A stretch of DNA of 63,847 nucleotides, counting the filler, from Dugesia japonica (lineage: Eukaryota), in assembly GCA_001938525.1 (NCBI GenBank). It is 6 parts of 6 records of this genome, joined end to end, with 100 filler letters (N's around TTAATTAATTAA, not from the genome) between each part and the next. Parts side by side here need not be neighbours in the genome. Positions count along the whole stretch, not along the records: positions 9,654 to 18,805 come from MQRL01596969.1; 5 more parts are not named here. One strand, written 5' to 3'. Shown here piece after piece: positions 13,977 to 58,879 of this stretch; positions within the stretch are counted from its first letter, which is position 1; each line of letters starts with the position of its first letter. Under the pieces are notes generated by a model. That model was not told where the DNA came from. It saw only the letters and a list, made by a program, of their open reading frames with translations, and did not search any database. The translations under genes were made by a program, and so were the position numbers.

Positions 13977-14320
13977 GTTATCATATTACTTATTTCTGAT
14001 GGAATCCTATTTGTTATACTGGATGGTAATATGTTTGCTACTTTTGGAATAATATCGGTTACTCCACTAGGTAACGAAGACACTACATTACCAAGTTCTG
14101 CCAATGCATTACATTTCAATGTTGGTAATATTTTTCCATTATTGGCTATAACATCTTGAGCAGTTTTCATACCAAAACTACCAATACGTTTCAGAATAGG
14201 AAGCGCAAATATACCTATTGTTCGCAACCAGCCGGGGCCTTACTGATTTCCGACAAAGTAAGGCAATTTTCCACTTGCTTGGCTTTTACTGTACAATGAT
14301 ATAATATCAAGATTAGACAT
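13977..14320 (-). pseudogene. Small amphipathic virion protein between penton and MCP (QxGxG type, adintovirus 'GasderminX'-like)
   Basis: MSNLDIISLYSKSQASGKLPYFVGNQ*GPGWLRTIGIFALPILKRIGSFG. The ATG overlaps the penton stop (TAATG at 14322-14318). Confidence 0.7.
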
Positions 14321-15418
14321 TAGTTTTTCTAAAATGTAAAGTTAAATGTCTTTTTGAATCTTTTGGAAACTTGATTAATTTTCCGTTATCATCGCAAATA
14401 TTAATTTCTATATTGTTTATAAATGTTGTTGCGATCGGTAAATACATTGGATTATCAACTATTATTTGTACTACTTCATCAGTTTCATATTTTTCTNNNN
14501 NNNNNNNNNNNNNNNNNNNNNNNNNNNNNNNNNNNNNNNNNNNNNNNNNNNNNNNNNNNNNNNNNNNNNNNNNNNNNNNNNNNNNNNNNNNNNNNNNNNN
14601 NNNNNNNNTCTAATACCTTGCAATATACCATCTTTTAATTCTGAATGTGAATATTTTTGTTTTTCGAATCCCAATGTTTTTGCCAAGACCTTATCGAATG
14701 TAACAGTTTTGATATCATTTCCTAGTGTCATTTGAAATAGATTATTTGATTTCAGACTAATTGTATAAAATAGATCAAAACAAGTTTCTGTTAAATATTT
14801 ACATAATTCTTCAATTTCTGTTATGTATAATTCATCTTTAAACTGTATAGTATTATAAATTACTTGATTATATTCTATTTTAAATTTTACATATTCCATT
14901 GGAGAATCTTCTTTATATGCTGTATACAGAATAGGAAAATATCCGGGTTCCATTTAGTTAATCTTATATGAGAATCCTAATCTATTTGCAGTTATTTCAT
15001 TTTCAAATATGGCAACATATGGATATTTACATTTAATAGTTAAATATCCATTAGGAGTTGGAATGACTTTTAATTCTTGCTCATAAAATTTTCCTTGTAT
15101 GATATTATTCTCATAATCTATTGCTGTATAGACATTATTATTATCTTGACTTAAACTCAAGGATTGTTTTTTGTGATCAATTATAACAGTTATTTCGTTT
15201 GTTATATTTTTTGTAGACATGTATTTAATTTTAGATTTGCTATATAATGGAAATGTTTGATATACAAAGGTAAAATCCAACAATGCCACCTCTTAACTAC
15301 CATCCATATAAATCGGATTTTGAAGCTCAACAATGAATTTACTAGCATTATTATTCGGATGAATAAGATGACAGGTATTACTAGGTAAAAGTGTATAGAA
15401 AATATTCGCGTTGTTCAT
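14320..15418 (-). pseudogene. Minor capsid protein (penton)
   Basis: N-terminus FYTLLPSN..HPNNNASKFIVELQNPI..GS*EVALLDF. C-terminus NPMYLPI..INNIEINICDDNGKLIKF..LTLHFRK. Internal stops. Confidence 0.88.
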
Positions 15419-15437
15419 TATTAACTAACTGTGATGC

Positions 15438-16442
15438 TTATATCCAGGTAGGTTTTTGATATCCATGCCATTTTACATAATATTGTTTTTTCCTTTTTGT
15501 TCCTTTCGATTTTATTATTTTTTTGATTCTATATGTAGTAGGAGGTGCAATGACTTGTAATTCTAGCTCATAAAACCTTTCTTGTATAATATTATTCTCA
15601 TAATCTTTAATTACGTACATGACTGGATTTTGTTTGGTATTGATTTTCGATATTTAAAGCACTTCATCACTCCAATTACTATCAAAGTTTTTAATGAATG
15701 GAGATGCGCTTATTTTTGAGATTCTAACATGGTCATCGACTTTATATTTTGGTTTCTTATTTGCTTTGCTTTGATTACGCGATAACTATAATTTTACTTC
15801 ATTATTTGAACTTAAATCAACCGGTCTTGCTCCATTTAAACCTTTATAACTTGAATGATTATAACTATTAATCGATTTTGACAACACATTTATCCAGGTT
15901 TTATTGCCACTATGCACAAAGTATTTTTTCAAAGCATCTCTTAATTTAAGATTAAATCGCTCTACATGTGCTGCTTTATACTGAGAGAATAAAGTATAAT
16001 GGTTTATGGATATATGTGATAAAAGATTTTTGACTTTAGAGTTGTAAAATTCCTTACCTAAATCAGTTTGCAAATTATCCGGATGTCCATCTTTAAACAT
16101 TGATTTAATGGCCGGTTCCATATCATTTGCGGATTTCGATTTGACGGTAATAGCTCTTGCAAATCGACTGAATACATCAATATATGTCAAAATATATTTG
16201 ATTTCTTTATTTATTTTTGAATACGGGATCATCTCTATCAAATTCATTTGACATAAATCATCAATTCCAAACGTTTTGTATGCTCTTTTCAAAATTGGTT
16301 TGTTCAAACTGTACGCCAGTTGACTCGATAACCACTTTTTTGTCTTGGTTTTGGTTTTTTGTGCTGCTTACATTAATTTTTCTACGCCACTAAAACCTGC
16401 GGGATTTTTTGCGTCTGTCCAAATCGTCTTCAGCTTGCCCAT
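15438..16442 (-). pseudogene. int: Polinton retroviral-like (rve) integrase with C-terminal chromodomain
   Basis: NPAGFSG..WLSSQLAYSLNKP, YIDVFSRF, LQTDLGKEF, KAAHVERFN, YKVDDHVRISK and YYVKWHGY. Stops present. Confidence 0.93.
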
Positions 16443-16552
16443 TACAACAATTAGATGAAAACTTTAAATCAAAATTAGGTTATGATTGTAAACTGCCCAT
16501 TGTTTATTTAGGATGAATTTATAATAACATTTTCTATAAAACCAACAATTAT

Positions 16553-16882
16553 TTATTTGAAATGAGTTAATCCCAGTGCTGCTAATGTAATTGGTAGTAA
16601 TGCTGCTATAAAGCCACCTATTTGATTATCTCGTATTACTCGTCTCATTAATTTCTTATTTTTTATATTTTCAAGTGTTAATAGTGTTCTTTAATGTTTT
16701 TTCAATACTTCTTTTCTAGCGTTGTTCACATTTACATTTCCGCGAACAATATTTATAATAATTTCAATTAAATCATCCATAACAAAGGTTGGAAATGATT
16801 TCAAAATTTGCATTCTTGCCGATTTTCACGATTTAATTAATGATCTAAAAAATATAATACTTCTTTGAATTTTTATTTTATA
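16553..16882 (-). pseudogene. Putative core protein with xxGG/F protease site (adintovirus 'cupiennin'-like)
   Basis: DDLIEIIINIVRGNV...KKLMRRVIRDNQIGGFIAALLPITLAAL. Not in the ORF track because of two stops. A homolog lies at 47996-48300. Confidence 0.72.
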
Positions 16883-16908
16883 TTTTAATATAACTTACGT
16901 GTATTTGT

Positions 16909-17112
16909 TTATAATGATTTCCATTTTCCGTTTACGTTAGTCATTTTCTTACCATACAGTTTTGAAAGTTTCTTAAAAATGTTTAACTGTTTCCTTTGTT
17001 TTCTCTTTTCACCCTTTTTCTTTTTTACAATACACTTTTTTGTTTGTTTACCTTTTTTCATTTTAGGAATACCTTTTATCTGATTAACTACAATTTTCTT
17101 AAATTTCGCCAT
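16909..17112 (-). CDS. Small Lys-rich protein, putative DNA-condensing core protein
   Basis: 67-aa MAKFKKIVVNQIKGIPKMKKGKQTKK... from the ATG at 17112, located between the ATPase and the GGF protein. Confidence 0.55.
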   Translation of the reverse strand: MAKFKKIVVNQIKGIPKMKKGKQTKKCIVKKKKGEKRKQRKQLNIFKKLSKLYGKKMTNVNGKWKSL

Positions 17113-17124
17113 TTTAAAATATAA

Positions 17125-17746
17125 TAATAACTTAGTTTGTTTATACACAGTAACACCATCAGGATTGAAAATATCGGTACTCACCCACTGGACATTGTTG
17201 TGTAAAGTCGAGAAAAGTATAACCATGTGGATTTATTGTTGCATCTTGAAATGATTCAATAAGAAATTGTCGATTATTAGGATAAGCCTGTCTTGCCAGA
17301 AAATCAACAACTGTTTGATCTCTCATATTTTTAAATAGAACCAAGTATTGTACATTTAAATTACGTGTCCTATGACTTCCATCTTGATGGAATAAATTTT
17401 GAGTAATGAATATAACAGTCACATTACAATGTCTGCTTATTTTGGTAAATAAATTATTAAAGTCCTTTTCTTTGTTTGCCTCCTAATAAAGATCATCTAC
17501 TACGATAACATCACCCGGCTTCAATCTCTTGCTCCAATAAGAATCAAATTCCTTTATAAATTTCATTTTAATGTTGCAAAATTCTGATTGTGTCAACCCA
17601 TGCTCTTCATCTGCACCTCTGTGCCAANNNNNNNNNNNNNNNNNNNNNNNNNNNNNNNNNGATTTTAGTAACTTGCATACAAATAAGGTTTTCCCACTAC
17701 CACTTGGACCAACAATTTGATAAACAGCATCATTCCTCAACTCCAT
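17125..17746 (-). pseudogene. FtsK/A32-like genome packaging ATPase
   Basis: Walker A IVGPSGSGKT, Walker B VIVVDDL, FTKISRH and IFITQNLF..RNLNVQYLVLFKN. One stop and one frameshift. Confidence 0.93.
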
Positions 17747-17872
17747 TTTATATAGATTTAATTTAAAACATTGTTTATAATACTATTTGTCTTTGTTTAA
17801 ATGAATCAAGTAATTTTATTTCTGGAAAAGATGTATATATACACACTCTCATTTATTAAAAAATCAATAATA

Positions 17873-18298
17873 ATGTTAGTTAATATTAATTACAAAGGTA
17901 AAGTGTCGCAAGATTTAACAAACAAAATGAAGTTTACTATCGGTAAACCTTCTTAATATGTTGACAAAAGTGGAAAATATACATTGATATTCTTTAAATC
18001 AGGAAATTGTGGAATAATGGGATGTAAAAAACCGTTGGAAAGGGACAAATTGCAGTATGATATAAAAGATATTTGTTTGCAATCATAAACAATTGTAATC
18101 AATTTGTATAAATTAGCAAAAACAACAAAATGCTGGTTTGAACCAGAATTGTTTCCTGCGTTACGACTTACAAAGTATGATCATGTATGTGTAAACGTAT
18201 TTTCATCAGGAAAAATTGTAATACTAGGTATAAAAATTTTACACTATCAAGGATATGATGATAATATAATTTCTGATTTATTTTATTTAATTGTTTAA
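17873..18298 (+). pseudogene. Divergent TATA-binding protein (TBP)-like gene, intronless, 141 codons with 2 in-frame stops
   Basis: Repeat 1 TLIFFKSGNCGIMGCK resembles TBP TALIFSSGKMVCTGAK. Repeat 2 WFEPELFPALRL..VCVNVFSSGKIVILGIK resembles YEPELFPGLIY..VLLIFVSGKVVLTGAK. Confidence 0.85.
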
Positions 18299-18479
18299 TT
18301 GCAAAACATGAATGCACAGTCAAGCAATATGAATGCAAGTATAACAAGGCATTTCATGTTTGATCATTACTTGTTTTTCATTGGTCGATTTTAATTGGTC
18401 GATTTGTGTTAAATAGAGAATTGTATATAAAACATTAAATATTTCATTTTAATCAGTTGTTAATTTTTAAAAAACTAAA

Positions 18480-18777
18480 ATGACCACAATTCGAATCAAA
18501 GATATCAGAAAAACGTGTATGGAATCCGCTGATTCAGATGATCAGGAGGATTTGATAAATGAAATAGGTACGTATTTTATTTTTATTTATTCATTATTTA
18601 TAATTTTATTTTCCAGATATTATCGAAATTATTTTATTACGGAAAAGAATTACGCTGAAAAAAGAAAATTATGACGCAGTTCTGGGAGAATATCACAAGG
18701 CAATATATCTCCGCGCTCATTGTGAGTGCTGCCGATGTAGATATAATCTACTAGAAAATATAATCAATATGTATTAA
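18480..18777 (+). CDS. Intact spliced 82-aa protein with acidic N-terminus and C-terminal Cys cluster
   Basis: Exons 18480-18567 and 18617-18777 with a phase-1 GT-AG intron. Ends ..LRAHCECCRCRYNLLENIINMY*. Upstream are ATTGG boxes, GTATATAAAA and TCAGT. Confidence 0.62.
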
Positions 18778-18805
18778 TAAATGTTATTTCTAAAATTACT
18801 TCTTT

Positions 18806-18905
18806 NNNNNNNNNNNNNNNNNNNNNNNNNNNNNNNNNNNNNNNNNNNNTTAATTAATTAANNNNNNNNNNNNNNNNNNNNNNNNNNNNNNNNNNNNNNN
18901 NNNNN
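18806..18905. other. Artificial contig linker
   Basis: N44-TTAATTAATTAA-N44. Confidence 0.97.
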
Positions 18906-19590
18906 TCTTTCTTTTTCTGAAGCTAATGGACATTTCCTATGAGCTAATTTTGCTGCATCATCTTTATATTGTATATCAACATTTAAAGGATAACCTAAAT
19001 TAAACTCGTTATTATGTATTTCTTTTGCTTTATTAAACATGAATGATTATGTTTGTATTGGATTTCAATTCATAAAATCAATTGCTTCTCTCCAAGCTTG
19101 TTCAAAATTATTTTAAGGTAAAAGTTGACTCATTGAATGACCGTATAAATTATTTGTATCGATATATAATAAAAAAATGGATTCTAAAAACTCTTAAAGT
19201 TTAATTGTATTTTTTCCAGACATTTTAAAATCATTTAATATATTTTGAAATTCTATTTCATCTGAATAACTATAATATTCAAAATTTCTATTAGTATATT
19301 TATTATTTGCTTTAATATATCTATCTCCTAGTGCCGTAGATATTCCTCCTCTTATTCCTCTTTCAAAGAATTCGAATAATTCCTGCATTTGTAATAAATC
19401 TAATGTAATTTCAGANTGTTTTAAACCTTTTTTCCAGGTTAAAGCGGAAGCTGAGACAAAATAAATTGGATGTAATTCATTTATAGCTCTAAATTTTTCT
19501 ATTGCATCAGCCATAATAAGTCTACTTTATTATATAGGATTGAATAATAACGGAAATTTCGACATTTAAATATTCGATAAGCGTCTTTAA
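18906..19590 (-). pseudogene. polB: pPolB fragment (diverged from the 9750-11250 copy)
   Basis: ADAIEKFR..LHPIYFVSASALTW, FFERGIRGGIS..YIKANNKY, LLYIDTNNLYGHSMSQLLP and GYPLNVDIQY. Confidence 0.9.
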
Positions 19591-20059
19591 ATTTTTTTTC
19601 TTGTCCCGTTGTTTTAGGGTTACATAGAGAAAAGTTATTCCCCCTTAACACTTTCCAGGTTAATTGACCTTTCTTTTTGTGTACTTATTAATAAAAATTT
19701 TCTCTAATTTATTTCTATTAATTTTAATTAATTTAAATAAATTTTTTAATTTCTTAATTATAACTAGCCATAATTCTTCCTTTTACTGGTCTTAATTATT
19801 TTCCGTATTATTTATAATTATTTTCGGAATTTCTTCGTAATTAATTCTAATTTAATTATTGGTAATCATATTTTTTTCTAATTAATTCAAAATTATTATT
19901 GATTGCTAGCCTATCTCATTGTTGGGGGTCCCCTTGTATTATTTCTTCTTTATATGTTTATTTATTCATAATTTTGGGATCCCTTCTTACTTTACTTCTT
20001 ATACTCGGTGTTTCACTCCAACATATATACGGAAAAGTTCCACACTTTAATGATTTTTC

Positions 20060-20400
20060 ACTTTGAATATTTTATCAGGTAAATATCTCAATGACTCCCC
20101 TCTTTAAATATTTTTAATAGATATATTTTTGATAATATAAATATCTCAAAGACTACCCTCTTTGAATATTTTATCATGTTAATTAAATTAAATTTAAATT
20201 AATTAATTTTAATTAACTAATTTTAATTAAATTATTTAAATTTTAGACTGTCCGGAGCATATATAAAAATATTAAGACTGCCAAATCTCTTGCAATAAAA
20301 ATCAATACTTTCTAGTCTCATACATGAATACCAGAACTGCCAAATCTAATACATAAATATTTAGACTGCTGAAATTTACATCTATTTTCAATAAAATATC
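20060..20400 (+). repeat. Partial copy of the subterminal repeat stack (tiers C and E)
   Basis: aatatctcaaagactaccctctttgaatattt units followed by aagactgcc units, homologous to 29350-29570 and 29920-30065. Confidence 0.7.
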
Positions 20401-26636: not shown

Positions 26637-26890
26637 ATGATATAAAAAATTTAAAATTACAGTCACTAACAATTGTCGTAAAAATGGGAGTTTCAATAAA
26701 TATGTATACTCGAGAATAGTCAACTGTTGGTTTGTACCAGAGTTATTTCCTGCTCTAAGACTTGTAAAATATGACACTTTATGTGTAAATGTGTTCTCAA
26801 CAGGAAAATAGTGATGCTTTGTCTTTAAAATTTTAATTTTCAGGTATATGTGGATAACATTACTTCAAATTTATTTAATTTGATGGAAAA
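26636..26890 (+). pseudogene. Second copy of the TBP-like gene (C-terminal repeat), frameshifted
   Basis: DIKNLKLQSLTIVVKMGVSINMY / NCWFVPELFPALRLVKYDTLCVNVFSTGK / IVML..YVDNITSNLF, homologous to 18055-18298. Confidence 0.82.
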
Positions 26891-28333: not shown

Positions 28334-28590
28334 CAAAGTTATTTAAAACATTTTCATTAAAGCAAGATGAAATATTTGAATTTACATTAGCAAATAGAAC
28401 TAAAAGTTTTAAATTTGATAAAATCTTAACAAAAACTTTAGGATTAATGAATCGCAATATACTCGAATAAAATTTAATGATAAATAACTATTATATAAAA
28501 GTAATAAAAAACCTAGAATATNAAAGTGTTATAATGAAATTTTCATCTATTGTAGTATTGTTGAACCTATAATTGTTGGAGATTTTAGAT
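28334..28590 (+). pseudogene. Penton fragment
   Basis: KLFKTFSLKQDEIFEFTLANRTKSFKFDKILTKTLG matches 14471-14953. It is followed by the conserved IFIYCSIVEPIIVGD. Confidence 0.75.
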
Positions 28591-28737
28591 ACATACATAA
28601 TCGTTATTTGTTAGTTTTTATTAGCCGTTACTCATTTCGATTAATATGATTAGATGTTATCTAAAATATTCATGAACATGATGAGAGCATGCATTGTGCG
28701 TGACGCGAGCATGTATTTTGCATGGTAATCTCTTATT

Positions 28738-30575
28738 ACATGTAAATAATATACTCATAAACCCTGAAATATAGGGTTACTATATAAATATTACTCTCAT
28801 AAGCAATATATTACACAGTTGCTATGTAAATAATGTACTCATAAAACCTATAGGGTTACTATGTAATAATACATTTATAATCCTTAAAATAAATGGTTGC
28901 TATGTAAATAATACAAGGTAACTTTGTAAATAATATACTCATAAACCATATAATACAAGTAACTATGTAAATAATATACTCATAAATCCTATACACTATA
29001 AGTTTTTTATAAACTTATTAGTTATATATGAAACAGTTCCATGAATTTATGATTTTAATGGAAAAGTTTCTATGCTTTTTATCATTTTGTGCAAAGAAAT
29101 GTTCTCATTTTAATATGTTTTATAGAAAAAATTGGATATGTTTTTATTTAGTTGCTTTTATTAAAAATTACATCACTAATGAGATGTTTTATAGAAAATT
29201 GTCACTATTAATATGTATTTATAGAAAATTGCCACTAGTAATATGTTTTTCATTAGAAACATTACATGACTAATATGTTTCTGAAAGAAAATTATCTAGC
29301 TAATATGCTTTTAAGAAAAAAAAGATTTGTTTTTTTCATCTTGTAAAAAAAAATTTTATTATGTAAATATCGCAAAGACTTCCCTCTTTGAAGTATTTTA
29401 ATATATATGTTTTATCAAATAAATATCACAAAAATTCCTCTCTTTGAAGTATTTTAATGTATATTTTTTATCATGAAAATATCACAAAGACTCCCCTCTT
29501 TGAGGTTTTTGGATAGATATGTAAATATAGATCATGTAAATATCACAAAGTCTCCACTCTTTAGTTATTTTTACTGCACTGAAAATCATGTGCCTGAGAA
29601 TTTTTATTAAAAATACAATAGGTATGCAACTCAGATGCCATTAGAATGCAACACACATATAATAAAAATCACGTGCCTCGAAGATTTTTATTAATAAATG
29701 CAATAGGTACGCAACTCAGAGGCCACAAGAATGCAACACACATACACTGAAAATCATGCGCCTGAGAATTTTTAAAAACTGAACATAGCCACCATTTTGC
29801 TTTTTTTAAAGACTCAACATAGCTGCCATTTTGAATTTTTATTGATTTCTTCAATAAATGCAATAGAAATGCAACTCATATGCAACACATATACACTGAA
29901 AATCACGTGACTATGAATTTAAGACCGACTCATACCTTGCAAAAAATCAAAACTGTCCCATACCATGCAAAATATCAAGACTGCCACATACCATGCAAAA
30001 TATAGAAACTTCTCATGCTAAATATCAAGACTGCTCCATCTCATACATAAATATAAAGTCTGCTCAAAAATAAAATTTTAATTTTCCATGCAAGAATAAA
30101 TCTTTGAATTTCCCGCTAAAATTTTTTTAAATTTCCCATAAAAAATTAACAAGACTTCCCTCTTCCCTACTCGAAAAATATGAAAACACACACTTCCCAG
30201 TCAAAAATATATCAAATACTCAAAAACACCATTACTTTCAATAAATTCATCAATTAAAGCAAAATTCAACATTTTGAACTAACAGAAAAATTTCAAATAA
30301 TTAATAAGAAATCTGATAAATAATTCTCTTTCAATACATACCACTTTCCCCCTCCTGAAAATTTTTTTAACACACTTATACTGTTTACAAAAAATCAACC
30401 AATCAAATTAAAGCCCTTTAAATAAAAAATCGATACACATTCGACATACAAAATCTTCTTCATCACATTACCCTTCCAACGAAATATCTACCATTCAAAT
30501 CCCATAACCCACTACAAAGCTACAACCTACCAAAAAACACGCCACGATAACTAATACGACTGTTCCCTGGCGTTT
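28738..30575 (+). repeat. Ordered stack of five tandem-repeat tiers plus a unique segment (putative Polinton TIR/subterminal domain)
   Basis: Approximate unit sizes: A ~38 nt (28738-28995), B ~30 nt (29100-29320), C ~52 nt (29350-29570), D ~80 nt (29575-29920), E ~24 nt (29920-30065). 29880-30575 is the reverse complement of about 43555-44330. Confidence 0.8.
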
Positions 30576-31259
30576 CTTTTATGTCTATTACTTTCTNCAA
30601 TTTTGCATAATAATCTCTTCTTCTGTTTTTATTAATATTTGCACAGATTATTAGCATTTTTTATAAGAGTTTTTCTTTGGTCAGCTCTCCATTTGCTAAG
30701 GATTTATCGACCAAATCTTCCACATTTTAAAAAAACATCTCAAGTTCTTCATCACCACCTTGATAGCTTTCAAGATTCTGTAAATCTTTTATTATGTCTC
30801 TCTTGCTCTCATAAGCTAATCTCAATCATTCTCGATATTCATCAGNNNNNNNNNNNNNNNNNNNNNNNNNNNNNNNNNNNNTTCATGAAGCATATATGTT
30901 ACCCAACGTTCCTGATCTTTCTTAGCAATGATGTTCTTTGCCTCAAAGTATATTTCACACTATTTGATAAACTTTTCTTATATTTTATTGTATATAAATT
31001 ATTTTTGAATTTAAAAAAATATATAATTTTAAATAAACATATTTTATTCACTTCATTTTATGTTTTATTCTTTTTAAAATATATTTGATTAAAAAAAAAT
31101 ACATTAAAATAAAAATCTTTTATTCATTTTATTTTATATTTTTAAAAAATCCTTAAATTTTAGTAATTTATTTTATAGTTTATTTTCTTGATATAATTTT
31201 AAATATACTTTTGATTTTACTAATTTCCGTTTTTAAAGATAAAAAATTTTAAATAATAA

Positions 31260-36298: not shown

Positions 36299-36955
36299 AT
36301 GGCTAGTAAAAAACAAGTTATTAGTAAACTAAAACAACAAGAAGTTTTGGGTATAAATACTTCATATAATAGTATAAATAATTTAGCAAATCTTGAAAAA
36401 TTTACTATCACACAAATTGAAAGTTTTGTTAAATGTGAAATTACTAATAAAACAGNNNNNNNNNNNNNNNNNNNNNNNNNNNNNNNNNNNNNNNNNNNNN
36501 NNNNNNNNNNNNNNNNNNNNNNNNNNNNNNNNNNNNNNNNNNNNNNNGTTTCTAAATTTTGTGAATCAGAATGTAAGAGTAAATTAATAAATCAATTTTC
36601 TAAACAAGATGAAAGAAATATTGAAATTATAAAACAGTTAGAAATTGATTACCAAAAAGAAAAGGATGAAAATAATAAATTAATGGAACGATTAAATTTA
36701 GCTCAAAAACCAAAATTTATTGAACATCCAGGTTTAAAACTTACATTGATAAAATATGAAGATGATGATGATTTAATTATTACAAATGATGATTGTATTA
36801 ATATTGCTAAAAAAATAAAAGAAAATAGTGATGATTTATGTGAAAGGTTAACAAGATTAAAAGTTCCAGAAGAATATGAAGGAGATATAAAAAGAGTTTA
36901 TGCAGCTAAAAGTGATTTACCAAATTATACAGTAAAAACTTCAAACATGAAATAA
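36299..36955 (+). CDS. Unknown coiled-coil protein, paralog 2 (spans N gap)
   Basis: Tandem paralog of 35784-36275. Confidence 0.62.
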   Translation: MASKKQVISKLKQQEVLGINTSYNSINNLANLEKFTITQIESFVKCEITNKTXXXXXXXXXXXXXXXXXXXXXXXXXXXXXXXVSKFCESECKSKLINQFSKQDERNIEIIKQLEIDYQKEKDENNKLMERLNLAQKPKFIEHPGLKLTLIKYEDDDDLIITNDDCINIAKKIKENSDDLCERLTRLKVPEEYEGDIKRVYAAKSDLPNYTVKTSNMK

Positions 36956-37002
36956 GTACCTTTAAAGTAGTNTTTTATATAATCAAATTTTTTATTTATA
37001 AA

Positions 37003-39198
37003 ATGAATAGATATAACAAAAATATTATTAGTGGGAATCAATGCGCTTTAACAGTTGATTTTAAATGTCCTGTTTGTAACAAGACATTTATAAACAACGC
37101 AGGGTTGTCGTCGCATATCCAGTCTCGAACCTGTGCAAGATCAGTACACGATTATTACACATGTAACATATGTTACAAAAGATTAGCAAGTGAAAAAGTC
37201 TTGCGACTGCATAAAATCTCCACAAATTGTGGAAGTAGTAAAGGTTCTGCAGGGATTGGTGTGATTCCGTTGTATTTTAATATCTGCGATCATAAATTCA
37301 CAAGAAAAAATCATGCTCAATCACATTTCAACAGTGATTTACACAAAGAGTGTGTTAAAAAATTGAATGAAGAAAAAGTTAAAGAATTATTTGATGAATT
37401 ACCTTGAAATGATGCAATTGAATTTGATAATAATGAAATTCGAAAGTTATTTAAACATTTGAAAAATATAAAGTATTATAATATCGAATATTTTAANNNN
37501 NNNNNNNNNNNNNNNNNNNNNNNNNNNNNNNNNNNNNNNNNNNNNNAAAATATAAAGTATTATAATATCGAATATTTTAAAGAAAGTAAAATTGAATTAA
37601 CAAGAAATATAAAAGCATTACATTGTAATTTAATAACCTGATTTAAAAAAGAAATTACTAAAATTGTTGATTTATATTTTGATTATTCGAAAAAGTTTAT
37701 ATTACGATTGAGCGTCAATTTTAATTATAATAAAGAAGATGAAGAAAGAATATTTAATTCATATTCTAGTAATGAAAGAATAACAATCAAAAGTGATGTT
37801 GAAATTAAAGTGCAAGAGTTATTAAATCAACTTCAAAGATATATGGAGGATGAAGATCAAATTGAAAGTGGATGGAATTTGAATTATATAGTTGATTTTA
37901 AAATTGAACTTTCTAAATATCAATCATTAGTTGGCTCAAGTTATGTAAAATTACCTTTTATTAAACCTGGTGTAATTAATATTACAAATAAAGATAATTG
38001 CTGTATTTTATATTCGATTTTAGCTCATAAACATTTATTTAAAGATCAACCAACTAAAGTTTCAAAATATATTCCTTATTTAGGGGAATTAAATACAACT
38101 GGAATGAAATTTCCATCAAATATTGATAATGTAAAATTACTTGAAAAATTAAATAATTTTAAAGTAAATGTTTTTGAAGTAACTGAAAAAGCTAAAATCT
38201 ATCCTATTTATATTTCACATTATGAAAGTAACCCAAAACAAAATGAAAATAANNNNNNNNNNNNNNNNNNNNNNNNNNNNNNNNNNNNNNNNNNNNNNNT
38301 AAATGTTTTTGTAAGTACTAATAATTATAAAAATAAATTGTGTTTGTGTTGTATGGATTCATATAGGAGTAAAGATTTATTAACAAAACATCAAAATGAA
38401 TGCATTAATCACGACGCAACTAAATTATATTTTGAAAATGATAAATATTATTCATTTAAAAATCATCATTTTAATAATGAATTGGCTTTTGTATTTTATG
38501 CAGATTTTGAAAGTTGGACAGATGTAAAAACTAAAAAACAAAAGCCTTTATCACTTGGAATTTATGTAGTAAGTAAATATCCACATTTAATTCAAAATGA
38601 ATACAAAGAATTCTTTGGAGAAAGTATCCATGAAGATTTCTTTCAATTTTTAGAAGAAATTAATAATAAATTAATTGATATTAAAGAAAATAAATTAATT
38701 GAACATTATACTGGAACAGATCATCCAGAATTTATTCTAAAGCAAAATTGTAGATATTGTAATAAAAATATAACTGAAAATCCTGTTTTAGATCACAATC
38801 ATTTTAATGGAAAATTTAGAGAATATGCTCATTCAAATTGTAATTTGAAAGATAAATCTATAAAGAATATATTTATTACTTTTTATTTTCATAATGCTTT
38901 AGGTTATGATAATCATTTGTTTTTTAAAGAATTATTAACAAAATATTCAACAGAAGTTAAAAGAATAATACATCATAATGATGAAGTTTATATTTCCTTT
39001 GAATTTAGACATATTAGATTTTTAGATTCAGCAAGAATGTGTCCATTTACATCAATTGATACAAGGGGTAAATTATTAAATCAATCAGGAAAATATTATC
39101 ATTTAAAATCATTTAATCTTGTTCCAAAGAAAATATCATTTCCATATGAATATGTTAAAGGAGAAAATATTAATCAAGTTATTGAATTATTAAAATCA
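37003..39198 (+). pseudogene. polB: pPolB N-terminal half with three N-terminal zinc fingers
   Basis: ORFs at 37003, 37459 and 37708 share one frame, with TGA at 37405 and 37639. Motifs ESGW..GSSYVKLP..VINITNKDNCC, FYADFES (Exo I), DHNHFNGKFREYAHSNCN, FHNALGYD, FLDS and FPYEY. Confidence 0.92.
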
Positions 39199-39298
39199 NN
39201 NNNNNNNNNNNNNNNNNNNNNNNNNNNNNNNNNNNNNNNNNNTTAATTAATTAANNNNNNNNNNNNNNNNNNNNNNNNNNNNNNNNNNNNNNNNNNNN
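39199..39298. other. Artificial contig linker
   Basis: N44-TTAATTAATTAA-N44. Confidence 0.97.
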
Positions 39299-39884
39299 CA
39301 ACTCAAGTGTTAATTTTTATGGAAACGAATAACAAAATAAAAGATTCTGAGGAAACTACTTACACTCTGAATGTGCAATTATACGGCATACAAATTGGTG
39401 TATAAAAAATGTTTTAGTGACGTAATCATAAAAAGAAATCAAGAGTAAACAAAGAAAACTTTACAAATGTATATAATCCGCCATTTTGAATTTTTAAAAC
39501 TTTTTATCGTACAATAAAGAATTTAAAACTATCTATACCTTGTTTAAAAGATTAGTATTCGACAATGTATACTTAACAAGAAAATCACATAAGAAAGAAC
39601 AAAGAATTTTTAAAATGAGTTTTTGTCACCATTTCGTTATCAAAATGTATCAAACTTGATATCATTAGAAGGGTAATGAGATGACAAATACGTATTTTAT
39701 GTTTTCAAAACAGTTTGATAAAAATGTATTGAGTTATTTGTCATTTAATCCTTAAACATGAATGAAAAATGAATAAATTAACTGACAAATTGTAAATAAA
39801 TAAAATTTATTTTAAAAAGACTGTGGAAAACAATGTCAGATTTAATAAGAAAACACACATACAAATACTTTTGTTATATTTTCA

Positions 39885-40200
39885 TAGACTTCTTAGTAAT
39901 TTTTAAAACATTTCACTGACTTCTATCTAATTTTTAAAATTTTTTGAGGACTTCTATGCAATTTTCAAATTTTTCGGTAACGTCTAAGTTATTTTTAAAT
40001 TTTTTTGTCGATCTCTTTGTAATTTTTGAAAATTGTAATGGCTTCTATGTAATTTATAAAATATTTCACTAACTTCTACGTAAAATCAATAGTATAAAAA
40101 CCTCTATGTAATTTATTAAAAATTAAGATGTACTAAATTGTATGTAATTTTTGAAATATTTTAACTTCATCTATGTAATACTATTGGAATATCTATGTAA
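39885..40200. repeat. Degenerate ~32-nt minisatellite
   Basis: Recurrent acttctatgtaattttt(t/g)aaa core. Confidence 0.65.
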
Positions 40201-40289
40201 GATAATATATAAAAGACAATTATGTGAAAAATGTATTTAAAACACGCATGTTCTTTATTAGACACTTGAAATTTTATTCAATATCTGTC

Positions 40290-40960
40290 ATTTATTTATC
40301 ATTTATTTCATCATTGGACTGTGAATCAGTTATTTCCTTACCAATCATATTCTTATTTGTACTTGAATCAGGCATCACTTCATCAAAAATATCATCATTT
40401 GGAGGCATATCAATTATTTTGTCACCAATAATCACATAATTTGGTTGTGCATCAATCATTTTCTAAGTAATAATATCATCATTTGGTTAAGTATCGTTCA
40501 CCTCTTCCTCTGTTGATGCATCTATTGAAAAATGATTTAAAAATGAAATAGTATCTTAAGCAAAATTTTCGGTTTTAAAATCAAAACTATGCATTTAAAG
40601 ATCATTTTCATAAAATTGATCTTCTCAAAAAAATAAATAAATCAATTTCCTTCCCATTAAATCATAATTTCTCCTGACATATTTTGAAATGAAACATAAT
40701 TTCTTCTGGGCATAAAATAAATATCATTATAAATTCCTGTTAGCATAAATTTGTATAATTTGTATAAATATTTCTTTTTTAAAATTATTCAAAAAAAATC
40801 AAAATAATTTAAAATAAATTTAAGTAAAATTACTTTATATATGTATATATAATTAAATTTACGTTTTCAAATAGTTTTTTCCTAGACGATTCACCTGTTT
40901 TTTTATTGTAATTCATTTTTATCTAAATAAAATAACAATAAATTAATAAAGAAAAACTTA
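40290..40960 (-). pseudogene. Spliced acidic accessory gene downstream of adenain
   Basis: Exon MNYNKKTGESSRKKLFEN bounded by TTTAG and GTAAAT, then a decayed acidic exon after CTAACAG (about 40737). Same position as the 11826-12200 gene. Confidence 0.45.
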
Positions 40961-41194
40961 AAAAATTGTTGATATTGTTTTAAAATTTAGAAATTAAATT
41001 GTGACAAAAATTAATCAGTAATACCTTTTTATTCACTAGTTTATTAAGAAACCAATAATATTGCGAGAAAATTTTAAAATACCACAACGTAACATATTGT
41101 TGCATTAACACATTATTATTCATGAACATAATAAAGACTAATTTAAAATAAATAAAAAACATTTATTAATACATATCAAAACATGTACATTTTC

Positions 41195-41520
41195 AACTAC
41201 AATGATTTTTTAACCATAACAGACAATGTTGACCACATGTCTTTGTAAACGGATATTGAATTCTAATTCTATTATATTCAATTGGTTTTGATATTCTTGA
41301 GAGATGCGAGACCAACATTTGCGGATAAAAAAACCAAGCATATCAAAAACTAATATATTTATAGGTTTATGGTAAACTGCTATCCAATGTTCTCCACCGA
41401 GATTTGATGTGTGTGTATTGAAGATTATGGCTTTATTAACTGGAAAGTATGGAAGCTTGTCTAGGGGATACACTCCTAACCATGTTGAGCCAAGCCACTT
41501 TTTCCCGATTTGATTAATCT
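41195..41520 (-). pseudogene. Adenain protease copy with 1-nt frameshift
   Basis: GVYPLDKLP..GEHWIAVY..VFD, then a frameshift in an A-run before IQYPFTKTCGQHC. Confidence 0.88.
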
Positions 41521-41857
41521 TAAAAGAACTATTAAAATAAAAAATAAATTATATAATTAAGTATGCTTCATAACATATATTGATTATACCACATATTGTT
41601 TACNNNNNNNNNNNNNNNNNNNNNNNNNNNNNNNNNNNNNNNNNNNNNNNNNNAGAAATTAAATTGTGACAAAAATTAATCAGTAATACCTTTTTATTCA
41701 CTAGTTTATTAAGAAACCAATAATATTACGAGAAAATTTTAAAATACCACAACGTAACATATTGTTGCATTAACACATTATTAGTCATGAAAATAATAAA
41801 GACTAATTTAAAATTAATAAAAAACATTTATTAATACATATCAAAACATATACATTT

Positions 41858-42185
41858 TCAACTACAATGATTTTTTAACCATAACAGACAATGTTGACCA
41901 CAAGTCTTTGTAAACGGATTTTGAATTCTAATTCTATTATATTCAATTGGTTTTGATATTCTTGAGAGATGACAGACCAACATTTGCGGATAAAAAAAAC
42001 CAAGCATATCAAAAACTAATATATTCATAGGTTTATGGTAAACGGCTATCCAATGTTCTCCACCGAGATTTGATGTGTGTATATTGAGGATTATGGCTTT
42101 ATTAACTGGAAAGTATGTAAGCTTGTCTAGGGGATACACTCCTAACCCTGTTGAGCCAAGCCACTTTTTCCCGATTTGATTAATC
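41858..42185 (-). CDS. Adenain-like (C5) cysteine protease
   Basis: Catalytic H (GEHW), D (VFD) and Q/C (IQNPFTKTCGQHC) are intact. The true start is uncertain and may be spliced. Confidence 0.88.
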
Positions 42186-42295
42186 TTTAAAGATTTATTA
42201 AAATAAAAAATAAATTATATAATTAAGTATGCTTCATAACATATATTGATTATACCACATATTGTTTACACTAATGCCTTTTAATCCAAGTTCAA

Positions 42296-43109
42296 TTAAA
42301 CCAATACCGTTTTGTTGGCGTTTATTTGAATTTCCTTTTGAATACTCCATATATTACTTCATATGCCGGTACAGACAAAGCTTTTGCAAACTTTATATCC
42401 AGTCGTAAATTACCTTGACTTTGATTTATATAAATATCCGGAGGCAATACAAATGTAAAGAATGGATACTTGCTTTTGAATTCTTCAAGTGTGAGTCCGC
42501 AATTCCTATTTTTATTAAGGTATCCCATGTTTCTAACTATAGATTGCATGTATGTCATAATATAATTTTCCTTTTCAACATCTTGAGTATATATCTCTCG
42601 ATAAGCAGTATTTTTCAATAAGGAAATGGAAGTAGCATTGAAATGTTTGAATGTTAAACTTGAACCTTTATAACCACCATTTAATTGTTCTTCCTTTGAA
42701 ATGCGATTAGAATAAAGTTAAGCAAACAACGATCACCAAATATTTGCTCTTTCTTATTAGCAAAAGCAACTATTTCCTTGTTTCGTATAGAGTAAACTGT
42801 ATTTTGCTTATTTAATCCAATTTGATGACCTGTCAATACAGAAAGATCAACTCGTACGCGTTTAACCATTAATTTTGCATTCATTATTTCATATCTAGGT
42901 TTATAAGTTTGAGATTCCAAACACATTTCTGAAGATGCTCTTTTCATTCGAAAATGACCATTAACTCCAGGAATAAGATTTTTTTGTTGATCCAAAAATT
43001 CAGATTGTATCGATCTACACAGAGACAATGATTTATTTATACTCTTTTTTATATTTGCTTCTGTTTCATATTCCATCGCAGTAAGACATATATTCTTACT
43101 ATCACCATA
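42296..43109 (-). pseudogene. Major capsid protein, C-terminal part, interrupted at about 43109
   Basis: YGDSKNICLT, QKNLIPGVN, AKLMVKRV, TFKHFNA and GNLRLDIKFAKAL..EIQINANKTVLV*, homologous to 12740-13900. Confidence 0.9.
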
Positions 43110-44330
43110 AGTAGGTAGATAGTGACGCTACTGAACATTTTTTTAGCAAAATTTGAGGGATTCCCCCTTCCGAGGTGCTCGGAAACACGTAACGATTGTG
43201 CTATGATTTTTGTGCTATGAATTTTCGGTTAGTTTTTTTGCTAAGATTCTTTCGATCAAAAAAAACTTTGATCGGATCATTTTTTTATCCTGTGGTTTTT
43301 TGTGTGTGTTTTTAAATTTTAAAATTTGTGTGTTTTTGGGTTTCTAAGGCGGTTTTTTAAAAGTAGGTTAAGTTGAGTTTATGTGTGTGGTTGTGTGTGT
43401 GAAAGAATGGTTTTGTACTCGAGGAGTAGCTGGAGATCATGGAAATAATTTTTTTGTGGTTTTTAAGATTTGTTTGTTGTTGAACAAAAATACGATCTAT
43501 ACATTGTTTAAAGGACTTATGGTGTTTGATAGATGGTTTGTGTAAGAAGGATAGTAACGCCACGGAACAGTAGTATACGTTATCGTGTTGTGTTTTTTGG
43601 TGGGTGTAGGTTTCTAGTGGGTTATTGGATTTGAATAGTAGATATGTTTTTAGAAAGATAATATGATTGAGAAGATTTTCTGTATGTGAAATGTGCTTTG
43701 ATTTTTTATTTAAATGGCTTTAATTTGTTTGGTTAATTTTTGTAAGTAGTAAAAGTGTGATAAAAATATTTCAGGAGGGGAGAGTAGTATCTGTGGAAAG
43801 AGAATTATTTATCAGTTTTTTTAATAATTATTTCAAATTTTTCTATTGGGGGTGTATCATGTCATAATATTTTGAAAACTTTATTTTGGTAAAAAATGTT
43901 GTAATTTCCTTAAATTGATGAAATTAATGAAAGTAATGGCATTTTTTGCAAGAAATTTAAAATTTTTTTTCTGAGCAGACTTCATATTTATGTATCAGAT
44001 GGAGCAGTCTTGATATTTCACATGGGGAGTTTCTATATTTAGTAACGGTGAGTTTCTATATTTAGCATGGTATGGTACAGTCTTCATATTTATCATGGGG
44101 ATTTTCTAAATTTTGCATGATATAGAGAAGTCTTGATATTTTGCATGGTATAGGCTAGTCTTGATATTTTGTATAGGCGATTCTCTATATTTAGCATGGT
44201 ATGGGGCAGACTTGATATTTTGCAAGGGATGGGGCAGTCTAGAAAAGATAGTCACGTAATTTTCAGTGTATGTGTGTTGCACATGAGTTAAATTTATTTA
44301 AAAAAATCAATGTGTGTGTTGCATTTTTAT
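43110..44330 (+). mobile_element. Candidate Polinton terminus/TIR abutting the truncated MCP gene
   Basis: Starts AGTAGGTAGATAG exactly where MCP homology stops, then continues into the reverse complement of 29880-30575. Confidence 0.6.
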
Positions 44331-45544
44331 TAAACCTTAGAATTTTTTCTAAGTATTTATTTGGAAAAATTTTTTATAGGCTTTTTAAGCAGTAGAATTT
44401 TTCAGGCTTTTTGACTGGCAATAGTTTTTAGGCATTTTTAAGCAGTAGTATATTTTCATTATGAATTTAGTTGGGAATGATTTTGGTGACGTTGAATGTG
44501 GTCCATATTTGACTAGTTTAGGTGAAATTGGTCTAATTCTTTCTCGGGATTGGTTAGTTTTGGTAATATTTGGATGATTTGGTAAATTATTTCCTCGGGT
44601 TCGTCAATTTAGGTAAATTTGAAGCGTTTCGGTAAATTATTTCTTCCGGAGTGTCCATTTGAGTTGAATTTTTACGAAAAATCATGGAAAAAGTTGAATT
44701 TGTTTAAATTTTCAAGTTTTTTAAAAATAATTTGAACTTTTGTGTTAAAATGGTGAAATTAGGTCATTTTTGTTTAAATTTCCAGATTTTTAAAATTTTT
44801 AAATAAAACTTTAATGGAAATCCAGGAGATGATCCGAAATTTTGAAAATTTTAAAAAATATTTTGTCGAAATTTGTACAACAATATATGCAGAATTCGAT
44901 GGAAATAATTATTCACAAATAAACTTTTTTTGAAAAAATTATTTCTCATCTTTACAATAAATAACTAAATCTTTTAGATAGAGAATTTTCCGCTGATTCA
45001 AAATATATAAACCTAAAATCGCTAATATTTATCCAGAATGAATTATTTAATGTTTTCTGTTGAAAATTATCAAATTTTGAAATTTGGTGCTCAATTTGTT
45101 TGCGTACATAACTCGTATGGTTTCAAATTTAGTATTGTTTTACTCAGGAGAAAAAGGTGACTATGCAAACTTAAAATATAGTCTCGGCAAAAATGCTTCA
45201 TAACGAAGATTTTCAGCAATTTTCTCAGATTTGGTAACATTTTTCGAAAATTGAAAAAGTATCTCAAAATTTGTCAAAAAGTATCTATTAAATAAATAAT
45301 TTACTGCTAATTCCAAAGATATAAATCTAAAATCGTTACACTTTATAGATAAAAAGTTATATAGAAAAATTATGTACTTAATTTTAGAGTTCAGGAGGAA
45401 ATTATGGATTTTGGAAAGAGTAAGTGTAATTTTATCATCACGGTGTCTATTCGATAGAGAATTTAAAGTTGAGTAGAAAAACATAGTTATAAACTGCATA
45501 GATAAAACGTTATAAAGAAAAATCAAAGTGAAAAAATAAATAGT

Positions 45545-45935: not shown

Positions 45936-47995
45936 GAAAAGAAAGTTTAAAGTAAAAGAAAAGATTGTGGAAATTTTCACTAGTTTTAAAAACGTTTATC
46001 TAAATTTCAAAGATTTTTAAAACGTTCAAGTAAATTTAAGAATTATTTCCTTGCTCTTTTACATGGGATATTTTGATTTTAGAAAAGTTCCTGTATATTT
46101 TGACTAGTTTCAAAGGTTCTAGTAAACTTTCAACAAGATTTTTAAAGTTTGTATAATTATCAACGATTAGAAAAAAGTTCTAATAAATTTTCATCAAGTG
46201 AAAAAAAGTTCTAGTAAATGTTTAATCATGTCTTAAAAATTCATGTAAATTTCAGATAAAATTATTTGACTTCATGTAAATTTGATAATATTATCGCACT
46301 CTTTCTAGTCATCATTGGTATTAGCTTCTTCCCGTTCTTGTTCATTTTTCTAACTTAATACAATAAAACATATCAAAGAATAAAGTTAAACCTAATTTTG
46401 TTAAATAATAATAGAATAAGTATTATTTGTTTGTCAATTTGTTGTTCTATGTAATAAATATTGATAAATTATAATGTAGTAGAACCTACTTCAAAAATTT
46501 GTTTATTGAATATATCTGGCTTAATGATCTTATATTTATGGATAAAACCCATATTTTCATTGTTAAAACCAGTATTTTTATGCTAAAACCCCTGTTTTCA
46601 TTAAACCTAAATTTTCATGATAAAAGCATTATTTCCACGATAAATCTTATATTTACCATTACCAAACCATGTTCTTGTTGCTGAGATCATAAATTTATCT
46701 ATTAAAACTAATATTTTCAATGATAAGATCATTATTTTCTATGTTGAACTATTATTTTCTAACATTGTATTTAAATATTGTCTATCAAAATGAAAAAAGA
46801 AACCTATAAAATCAAAGAGCAAGCAAAGAAACCAATGATCAAGCAGAGAGCCAAGTAGTAAACAAATAAGCAAAAGGATAATCAGATGATGAAAATATAC
46901 TGAAATAGTTATATTATTTTAAATAAAAAGCATATTATATTAGGACTCACTCAATCTTATTGTCTTCTTTTAATAATATATGACACTTTTTAAAGATTAA
47001 TGAAGTGAGGTCTATGAAAATATGAAGTTAAAATATGCAATAAGACATAATAGAAAATAGAGAAAATAAAGCTAAACATAGCTAGATGTAACTAAATAAA
47101 GGTAAATCAGGAAAATATAGGGTAAATGATCGAAAATGACTAAAGTTTGGGAAATGGTGGCAAAATAAGGCAAAACTGATAAAAAGAAGATAAATTAAGC
47201 ATATTAAATGACTAAGTATAGAATAAATACAGTATAATTAGTGACTAAATTTACTCTTTTAAATATTTTCTATGTCCAAACTCATATTTTCTAATAGTAA
47301 AATTTATATTTTCTATGATTGCTCAATAATATTTCTATAGTCCATAGTTTTTTTATGATGAAACTCATATTTTCAATATTGAAACCATATAATAATGTTT
47401 ACATTATAGTCTAAAGTTGGATTCTACTGATTGATGATTTGGTGTTTAAATTATAAATAAACCCATGAACACCAAGGTGCATACAGGTTTGTCAAAGTGC
47501 CCACAAGAATACTAATGTGCAAGCAAAGATGAAAGCAAGTGGTGAAGGATTTTATTGAAAGGAATACTTATATTAAACAAGATAATACTCTTATATTTTT
47601 TCATGTTGAAACTATATTGAACTCAAAGTGTAATGGACTTATCCAATAAAATAAACCATTACTTATTAATAGTGGCTTTTCTTAACACGTAATCATTCAA
47701 TAAAACTAAAACATGTCTTTTTATTGATATTCAAAGCTTATTATATAAATATGAACAAAATATGAAGAAATAGGGTAAATGATGGGTGAAACAGATCAAC
47801 ATATAGGAAAATCGGGCAAAATTTAAGCAGTAGGACAAATGATTGGGGAATCGGGCAAATCAGGTAAAATATGGTAAAATGAAGTAAACAGTGGAAATAA
47901 TGTACAAATATCGTAAAAAACAGGATGATTAATATTTCAATGTCTATTGACAAAGTTATAAATAACTTAGTATTATTTATCTATTTAAATAAAAA

Positions 47996-48300
47996 ATGAG
48001 TTTAAAAAGAAGTAAATCATTCTTTACAACATTAATAAATTTTCTTACTATGAAGAGAATGAAAATTCTGCAAGTTTTTCTGTCATTCATTATTGATGAT
48101 TTACTTGAGATTATTGTAAATATTGTTCGTGGTAATCTAAGATTAAATGTAAAGCAAAGAAAAGCATTAAAAAAACAAGGAAATTCTTAGTTTTTAAATG
48201 CAAATACCAAGAATAAGAAAGTAATATAAAAGGTATTGTGCGAACAAAATCGTAGCTTTTTAACAATAATATTGCCAATAGCATTAGATTTATTAGGTCT
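47996..48300 (+). pseudogene. Second copy of the GGF core-like protein
   Basis: RMKILQVFLSFIIDDLLEIIVNIVRGNL matches 16553-16882. The 3' half is decayed. Confidence 0.7.
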
Positions 48301-53999: not shown

Positions 54000-54430
54000 C
54001 ACACAAAAACTTAATTAATATATTAAGATCGACATGCTACTATAACGAAACCAGCTTTAGTGAGATAGACGAATATTTCTGCTCAACAGAAGTAAATGTT
54101 ACGAAAGCTTCATAAGCGATTGATGAAATGAAGTTGTTACATATAAATTCTCCCGAATTAATAAAAATTAATTAAATAATAAAGGAAACATTTGGGGTAC
54201 GAGACTTTCTAAGCGTAGTATGCGAGTTACTGCGTGATGGAATTACAAAAGGCAAAGCACTGGTAACCATAGCGTTCCTATTTTACCAGGCTATATACAC
54301 ATTGTCAAAAGACAATCCAGCAAAGTTCCCAGACGAATGACAGATCCGCATGACAGGAATCATACAAAGAACGATTGAACCATGGATCCACCAACAGGGT
54401 ATTTGGTCAGCTTTCATTAAATCAGTGTCA
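54000..54430 (+). pseudogene. Bcl-2-family domain inside the retroelement
   Basis: One frame with stops at 54113, 54173 and 54338. BH1-like FLSVVCELLRDGITKGKALVTIAF, BH2-like IEPWIHQQGIWSAFIK, weak BH3-like KAS*AIDEM. Confidence 0.8.
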
Positions 54431-54491
54431 TCACAGAATTGCAATCAAAAGCACCTTACAACAAAAGTGAAAAAAGTGTTAAAAGCACTAT

Positions 54492-55510: not shown

Positions 55511-55610
55511 NNNNNNNNNNNNNNNNNNNNNNNNNNNNNNNNNNNNNNNNNNNNTTAATTAATTAANNNNNNNNNNNNNNNNNNNNNNNNNNNNNNNNNN
55601 NNNNNNNNNN
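55511..55610. other. Artificial contig linker
   Basis: N44-TTAATTAATTAA-N44. Confidence 0.97.
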
Positions 55611-56197
55611 AACTCAATGATTTCTTGCTCAAGTGCCTCTATATATTGTTTCTGGAATTCATTTTTCTGCTGGCATTCTTGTATAATAGATTCGAACTCG
55701 AGAGACAGTTTATCGATGCCAGTGCGTACACCTTCTCTATTAGCCAAGCTGGTTAGGAGTTGGTTTTCTGTAGCTAATCGGTGTTTTTCGAATTGGGTAT
55801 TAAATAGTTCCGTTCTCAATAATTGAGTGTTTTCTTGTTCTATAGTTAGTTGAATTTCCAATTCTTTACGTTTAGGTTCTACGTTTCCGTAATAATTTTT
55901 CCATTCGCGAGCCTGTTTTATCGCATTTATTTTTGCTCGGTTTGCATCAATGTTGCTCTTGATATATTTTTGGTGGGATTTGCAGGATCGTTTTTTATTT
56001 TCTAGCTCTTGGTGCGCTCTTTTGACTTGACTTTCCAACTCACTATTATATTTTTGTAATTGTAAATTGAAGAGGGCATCTATTTTAGCTTCAAGTTTCC
56101 ACTTTAAGACCTCAGGTACAGTGGTAAGGGTTTGAGTTTGAACCTGTAATATTCGCATTTCGTTACGCAAATGATTTATCAAGTTTTCAGTGTTCAT
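55611..56197 (-). CDS. Long coiled-coil accessory protein (truncated by contig end)
   Basis: 195 open codons rich in E/Q/K/L with heptad character. Confidence 0.65.
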
Positions 56198-56288
56198 TTC
56201 TAAAATCAGATAGGGTGATTAATTTATTATAATACTATTTTGACAATTATAAGTATATATGCATTATTTACATATTTAAATTTATTTA

Positions 56289-58876: not shown

Positions 58877-58879
58877 GTA

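Follow-up and report, generated by a model that had tools for sequence, protein, structure and literature searches.

Relatives of a dead TATA-binding protein gene in a Dugesia japonica Polinton may read a distinct promoter motif ahead of packaging and virion genes

The question raised by this locus is whether a Polinton can carry its own gene for a TATA-binding protein (TBP) and which promoters such a protein would serve. The stretch that was analyzed, hereafter called the window, comprises 63,847 nucleotides from Dugesia japonica (assembly GCA_001938525.1); its scaffold DNA is AT-rich with many runs of N, and a decayed Polinton lies between the gaps at 9554-9653 and 18806-18905. On the + strand of this element, a frame of 141 codons starts with the ATG at 17873 and ends with the TAA at 18298, broken by in-frame TAA codons at 17954 and 18086 and without frameshift. 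The initial annotation had described it as a frame containing the core peptides of both TBP repeats, head-to-head with the ATPase gene and decayed like the viral genes around it, and the present analysis bears out this description: both quoted peptides are present in 17873-18298, 126 bp separate the two start codons (that of the ATPase is at 17746, - strand), and the genes of the element carry stops at a comparable rate. Within tblastn alignments to intact relatives, stops number five in PolB, four in the integrase, three in the C4 gene, two each in the penton-like gene and in TBP, and one each in the ATPase and the major capsid protein (MCP), with frame changes in PolB and MCP. When an X is placed at both breaks, the window TBP matches the Pfam TBP family (PF00352) with 43.6 bits (cut-off 22.9, E 2.7e-11), the domain score coming from the C-lobe only; TBPs or TBP fusions make up 35 of its 36 PDB sequence matches at E<=1. 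A second relic of the TBP family, more decayed, frameshifted and reduced to the C-terminal lobe, is found at 26640..26843 (+) on a different contig of the scaffold; none of the core Polinton genes lies directly beside it, and a weak penton-like piece is located at 28494-28607. Downstream of the TBP gene, a short frame at 18481-18700 (+) is split by an intron-like AT-rich stretch and has no match in the first 40 rows of a blastx comparison with the frames of related loci.

The genes accompanying the TBP frame are those of a Polinton, arranged on the - strand in the order PolB, protease, MCP, small conserved gene, penton-position gene, integrase, second small gene and ATPase. The protein-primed PolB (9763..11254), with its five stops and frame change, shares 48-58% identity with the PolB of the related locus L009, and the PolBs of relatives L056 and L088 match PF03175. 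The adenain-type protease fragment (12578..12739) matches the protease cluster of the loci, one member of which exceeds the PF00770 cut-off. The MCP persists as pieces (12723..13741) interrupted by N gaps, a stop and a frame change, with 52-58% identity to the MCP of L009, which scores 0.98 to a double-jelly-roll cluster (PF21738 on 65% of cluster members); searched by sequence against the PDB, the MCP gave no match. The C21 gene lies at 14021-14314, the gene at 14325..15412 is labelled minor capsid (penton) from its place in the gene order, and the rve integrase with its four stops (15423..16436) matches PF00665 (E 5.5e-9). The conserved C4 gene region spans 16571-16924, and a small basic frame starts with the ATG at 17112. 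The ATPase (17159..17746), which has one stop and an internal N run and is 70% identical to an intact relative, is a P-loop NTPase according to its motif and PDB matches; its gene-order position suggests the packaging FtsK/A32 subfamily. Element ends with terminal inverted repeats and target-site duplications were not seen in eight long loci, and the window contig stops at the two gaps named above. The head-to-head arrangement is the layout of the window copy, most relatives having TBP co-directional and upstream of the ATPase gene or downstream of the protease gene.

A homologue search with the window TBP retained 106 proteins of 117 candidates, most of them 144-165 aa long, and the closest is 73% identical across 99% of the window TBP length. 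When 50%-clusters were searched with a profile, 66 matched at E<=1e-30, and all 88 aligned members of this mini-TBP family match Pfam TBP (E<=0.01). Among 266 pattern matches in metagenome contigs, 129 were relatives, the best 80 of which were kept as loci; many of these share contig-name prefixes and are not independent. A core Polinton gene was found on 41 of the 80 loci, that is, on 4/31 shorter than 2 kb, 16/25 of 2-4 kb and 21/24 of at least 4 kb. Of the remainder, 32 carry only accessory frames common to the loci, and seven, all below 2 kb, have no shared neighbour. The linkage to Polinton genes that the initial annotation expected thus holds, as tested across metagenome loci of other elements. 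The position of the TBP gene varies among the elements, the ATPases of which share only 34-38% identity, and the median pairwise dN/dS of 0.21 (51 filter-passing pairs among 71 genes) indicates purifying selection. The mini-TBP gene is conserved across many related Polintons, and the window TBP is a dead copy of this Polinton gene for a minimal TATA-binding protein.

An intronless and broken frame beside a Polinton could also have arisen from host TBP or TRF2 as a processed pseudogene. This origin is practically excluded, since the window frame reaches up to 73% identity to the family over its whole length compared to 19-28% with four cellular TBPs (26% with a plant-type TBP), nests deep within the family in a tree built without animal TBP or TRF2 (194 rows, reduced from 267 by removing near-duplicates), and has relatives that lie beside Polinton genes under purifying selection. 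Family identity, tree, selection and linkage together rule out the recent copy of host TBP that had been named as the condition speaking against a viral gene. In the same tree, a two-lobed TBP of 176 aa, P0235, is placed between cellular TBPs and the mini-TBP family.

The loci also carry various other genes. Accessory genes encode a ubiquitin-conjugating enzyme, a dual-specificity phosphatase, RING fingers, an LRR protein and a KilA-N zinc-finger protein (L017:225-719, L011:4008-4316, L046:1710-2168, L052:13315-13893, L022:1918-3327 and L075:606-1739). tRNA genes are present in 3 of the 27 loci scanned (Ile, L051:3449-3523; Asp, L055:10601-10684; Cys, L065:5518-5589), that of L051 sitting between the TBP and ATPase genes. 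In clusters C3 and C20 (e.g., L009:1788-2135 and L021:1636-1974), conserved accessory frames follow intron-like AT-rich stretches with GT...AG ends, which, judged from their sequence, would fit nuclear transcription by Pol II.

The fold was examined on an intact relative, P0002, which is 73% identical to the window TBP and is predicted to form the two lobes of TBP (pLDDT 95.6). In Foldseek, the alignments of this model to TBPs cover 171-178 columns and both lobes (TM ~0.70, best E 2.7e-9); all matches listed above rank 45 are TBP entries, the first non-TBP standing at rank 45 (E 5e-3), so that the model supports the TBP fold expected from the repeats of the frame. Viral TBPs match it no better than cellular ones (best viral E 3.6e-8, 16% identity). 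Residues were mapped for 269 family rows on a plant-type TBP, yeast numbers being obtained by offset from P191. In this sequence alignment, three of the four intercalating phenylalanines are kept (F116 in 97% of rows, F190 and F207 each in 99%), and the column of F99 holds proline in 93%. The acidic stirrup of the C-lobe (E186 in 92%, E188 in 98%), a putative TFIIB contact, is kept, as are N69, G125, Q158, P191 and G216. Other positions are consistently replaced: V71 by N (79%), V122 by R (96%), T124 by M (98%), N159 by S (85%), I194 by R (81%) and L205 by N (99%), with cysteine at 202/203 in 80% and also V161T. These conserved replacements presumably lie on the DNA face of TBP. The basic helix H2 of the N-lobe is missing, columns 133-149 being mostly gaps, and the P0002 model has no long helix between strands 45-51 and 65-77. 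The strong remodelling of the first repeat proposed from the frame alone is therefore seen in both model and alignment as the loss of F99 and of the long N-lobe helix. In cellular TBP, this helix forms a basic patch used by TFIIA, TAF1, Mot1 and Brf1/2, and the glutamate pair contacts TFIIB (PMC7221094). The altered-specificity mutant TBPm3 is changed at I194, V203 and L205, and the 3′ half of the TATA box is the part touched by the N-lobe (PMC1636458, which also covers P191).

Two classes of upstream sequence were found in the elements. In the window, the motif TATAAACA occurs on the - strand at 17772..17779, 33 nt ahead of the ATPase ATG, at 17138..17145, 33 nt ahead of the ATG of the small basic frame, at 16906..16913, at the start of the C4 gene region, and at 14414..14421, upstream of the C21 gene; these four occurrences compare with 1.4 expected, and two lie exactly 33 nt before an ATG. 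Across the loci, ATAAAC was counted within 75 nt of the ATG after removal of near-identical upstreams, with expectations from shuffles, on the same loci on which the motif had been picked. It precedes the ATPase in 24/24 cases (1.5 expected), MCP in 9/10, C4 in 15/18, C2 in 15/18, PLA2 in 9/11, the penton-like gene in 10/14 and the protease in 3/4. The corresponding counts are 7/14 for the integrase, 1/6 for C21 and 1/3 for PolB, three genes that match the two classes only partly. Ahead of TBP itself, ATAAAC is found in 3/60 upstreams (2.9 expected); these contain TATA in 27/60 (11.5 expected), the initiator TCAYT (Inr) in 33/60 (14.7 expected) and CCAAT in 10/60 (1.3 expected), and TATA and Inr are spaced by 29-33 nt in 12 of 17 pairs from 80 TBP upstreams. 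Before the window TBP gene (+ strand), a TATA-like run (17834-17841) and an Inr-like TCATT (17849-17853) resemble this family pattern; they stand closer together than the 29-33 nt of the relatives, so that the pair is probably decayed. Cluster C2 (e.g., L035:83-646) is a conserved gene of about 160 aa found behind the motif in 22 loci, sometimes tandemly duplicated; its protein has no Pfam match and presumably resembles a DEDD/MAEL-type fold.

The consensus over 129 sites is YATAAACR (Y in 118, R in 122), ATAAACA being the form of 99 sites and 23 ending in G. The motif lies about 35 nt ahead of packaging and virion genes, at -31 to -50 in 71 of the 129 sites. In 16 TBP-bearing loci chosen for their length (15 of the 24 of at least 4 kb and one selected by its ATPase), it occurs 124 times in sense (21 expected) and six times in antisense (16 expected). 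TATAAA and CATAAA are variants of the poly(A) signal, many sites lie at or just ahead of the stop of the upstream gene, and some are within coding sequence. The motif could thus belong to the gene before it, as its poly(A) signal, or be a coding by-product, without any link to the TBP gene. This reading is very improbable: where gaps exceed 100 nt (22 pairs), the motif keeps close to the ATG that comes after it, at a median of 38 (SD 47), whereas its distance from the preceding stop has a median of 204 (SD 168), and it is carried by only 3 of 24 convergent 3′ ends. Furthermore, the window site at 17772..17779 has no co-directional gene upstream and so is not the poly(A) signal of a previous gene.

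Five further loci were selected from genome contigs by their ATPase alone. One carries a TBP gene and has three motif sites (0.4 expected). The four others, which have no TBP match and one of which spans PolB to protease, contain two sites in total (2.5 expected); they are partial contigs, two from one assembly and three with 51-56% GC, so that a TBP gene could lie beyond their ends, and they branch off outside the elements that carry TBP, though weakly supported (65/81). The lack of the motif where no TBP match was found is therefore one contrast only. Other relics in the window, at 36916-43127, consist of a zinc-finger frame and a divergent PolB (25% identity to L009) on the + strand and of an MCP and a tandemly duplicated protease on the - strand; no TBP match was found among them, and YATAAACR is absent from the - strand of 39300-44500. 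A long inverted repeat of short tandem units (29867-30577 and 43553-44295, 70% identity, with a related copy at 20033-20400) possibly marks element ends. An isolated PolB piece at 18915-19630 (-) and a C4-gene piece at 47969-48289 (+) both derive from other copies. Decayed frames of LTR retrotransposons (protease, reverse transcriptase, integrase) extend over 54300-63847 and 2600-6800, and the frames at 54.3-55.3 kb and 62.5-63.7 kb presumably represent pieces of envelope glycoproteins, which they resemble.

The initial annotation had proposed that such a TBP might redirect host Pol II to viral promoters, and this proposal is supported by the gene-class specificity of the upstream motif. On the basis of sequence and structural model, it is probable that intact mini-TBP is produced early under a host-type promoter, attaches to YATAAACR and, by way of host TFIIB, recruits Pol II to the genes for packaging and the virion. 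YATAAACR would be a core promoter element, genes with TATA/Inr/CCAAT upstreams would be expressed early and those with YATAAACR late. A host-type TATA/Inr/CCAAT promoter would drive early synthesis of mini-TBP, which would then bind the motif ahead of the packaging and virion genes, its rebuilt N-lobe facing the invariant C at position 7. The kept glutamate stirrup would bind host TFIIB and thereby bring in Pol II. Loss of the long N-lobe helix may free the protein from the N-lobe regulators, namely TFIIA, TAF1, Mot1 and Brf-type partners. A Pfam scan of 106 locus ORFs and of 14 frames from the window detected neither a TFIIB nor an RNA polymerase family (on partial contigs, in which spliced genes may be missed). 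We lean slightly towards the broader proposal that a broad animal-type Polinton lineage possesses a one-protein late switch, in which a rewired TBP of 150 residues reads YATAAACR, plugs into host TFIIB/Pol II and escapes the regulators of host TBP.

The other role named in the initial annotation is that of a decoy: mini-TBP might sequester host TFIIB or damp host transcription in another way, YATAAACR being read by host TBP/TFIID as a weak TATA variant. The near-invariant E186/E188 and the loss of one intercalating phenylalanine and one helix would suit such a role, and PDB entry 1qn3 is, according to its title, a crystal of wild-type TBP with a C(-25) variant of TATA. We consider the decoy unlikely, because a protein with this role alone could do without the new residues that are invariant on the DNA face in the N-lobe and the C-lobe. 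Furthermore, 100 late-class upstreams contain TATAAAC 65 times and CATAAAC 27 times versus five TATAAAA and eight TATAAAT, which indicates that C at position 7 is selected, and C was disfavoured in the downstream half of the box in a yeast selection with TBPm3 (PMC1636458). The four loci without TBP match, where the motif is absent, also speak against it. Against mini-TBP as the reader of the motif, on the other hand, stand the C(-25) crystal and the fact that the specificity shift at 194/203/205 concerns base 2 of the box, which is unchanged in YATAAACR.

The motif might also be read by another protein, either a host forkhead protein or an unannotated viral one, mini-TBP acting at other promoters or with another polymerase. 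The forkhead consensus is RYAAAYA, which the commonest form ATAAACA fits, and several conserved accessory genes belong to no Pfam family. However, almost a fifth of the sites (23/129) end in G and the pyrimidine ahead is fixed; moreover, the strand-specific sites take up the positions of a TATA box, unlike an enhancer-type site, and another reader appears rather improbable to us. The preferred reading remains that mini-TBP itself is the reader of YATAAACR.

Four RNA runs with the same species label were also analyzed. At 82% likeness, 5487 of their reads fall within 14620-18790, only 12 of which reach at least 99%, and the reads over TBP and ATPase indicate that related copies, TBP included, are transcribed. 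One read direction dominates the ATPase (-) and TBP (+) genes alike (e.g., 127 versus 51 and 40 versus 10 in one run), and in none of the four runs did read starts cluster at the motif. This pattern fits read-through of decayed copies better than early and late expression, and gives the model no support. Reads have loose ends at 17807 and 17869, which suggests a different stretch between ATPase and TBP in other copies.

The closest functional parallel comes from beta- and gamma-herpesviruses, in which a viral TBP mimic (KSHV ORF24, EBV BcRF1, HCMV UL87) serves late promoters with a TATT element (PMC4893493; PMC12529657). In both systems, the virus encodes a TBP-fold protein but no RNA polymerase, and structural genes have a non-canonical TATA variant compared to host-type promoters for earlier genes, this timing being inferred in the present case. 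However, the herpesvirus TBP domain lies within a large protein, belongs to a six-protein complex and has been modelled as incompatible with TFIIB (PMC12529657), whereas mini-TBP is a free protein of about 150 aa that keeps the TFIIB stirrup, is associated with YATAAACR and has no partner found. Its structural similarity to BcRF1 is weak (E 6e-3), a search of longer proteins gave one cellular match among 7999 scored candidates, which is weak evidence for a stand-alone protein, and the Pfam families of the herpesvirus complex are absent from the 106 ORFs. By analogy, mini-TBP would work like the herpesvirus mimic without being a member of that complex.

Mini-TBP shares with cellular TBP (PF00352) the two-lobed saddle, F116/F190/F207, E186/E188, P191 and N69. 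It differs in being about 30 residues shorter than the core, in its N-lobe without the long second helix and F99, in the replacement of about nine DNA-face positions and in an identity of only 19-28%. Large dsDNA viruses, including Nucleocytoviricota, encode TBPs whose eroded N-lobe surface is proposed to evade host regulators (Ravarani et al. 2020, PMC7221094). The erosion of this regulatory surface is common to mini-TBP and Nucleocytoviricota TBPs; the latter, as they are described there, have diverged at the positions that bind TFIIB and often encode a TFIIB themselves, whereas mini-TBP keeps the acidic stirrup. The elements themselves resemble adintoviruses, Polintons and Mavericks in their pPolB, rve integrase, adenain, putative FtsK-type ATPase and jelly-roll capsid, with PLA2 in some relatives (PMC8502044). 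TBP had been placed outside the standard Polinton gene set, which is right, except that the label already exists in one figure legend from 2021: in the available text of Starrett et al. 2021 (PMC8502044), TBP occurs only as an abbreviation in the legend of Fig. 5, on MELD viruses and related elements, and that text gives no TBP family, distribution, promoter or mechanism. Our literature search found no paper on the mini-TBP family or its motif.

The window copy is dead, and the interest of this locus lies in the family to which it belongs. An initiation factor and a motif confined to virion and packaging genes bear on the timing of Polinton gene expression and on autonomous nuclear replication. 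The motif predicts where transcripts start, and a natural intact homologue is available for assays. As a natural TBP of altered specificity, mini-TBP would also show how DNA can be read when just three phenylalanines are left. If the proposed mechanism is true, mini-TBP and YATAAACR would form an orthogonal TBP-promoter pair smaller than any other known, with an origin independent of the herpesvirus system, and these elements would provide sequence-level evidence of an autonomous nuclear virus cycle.
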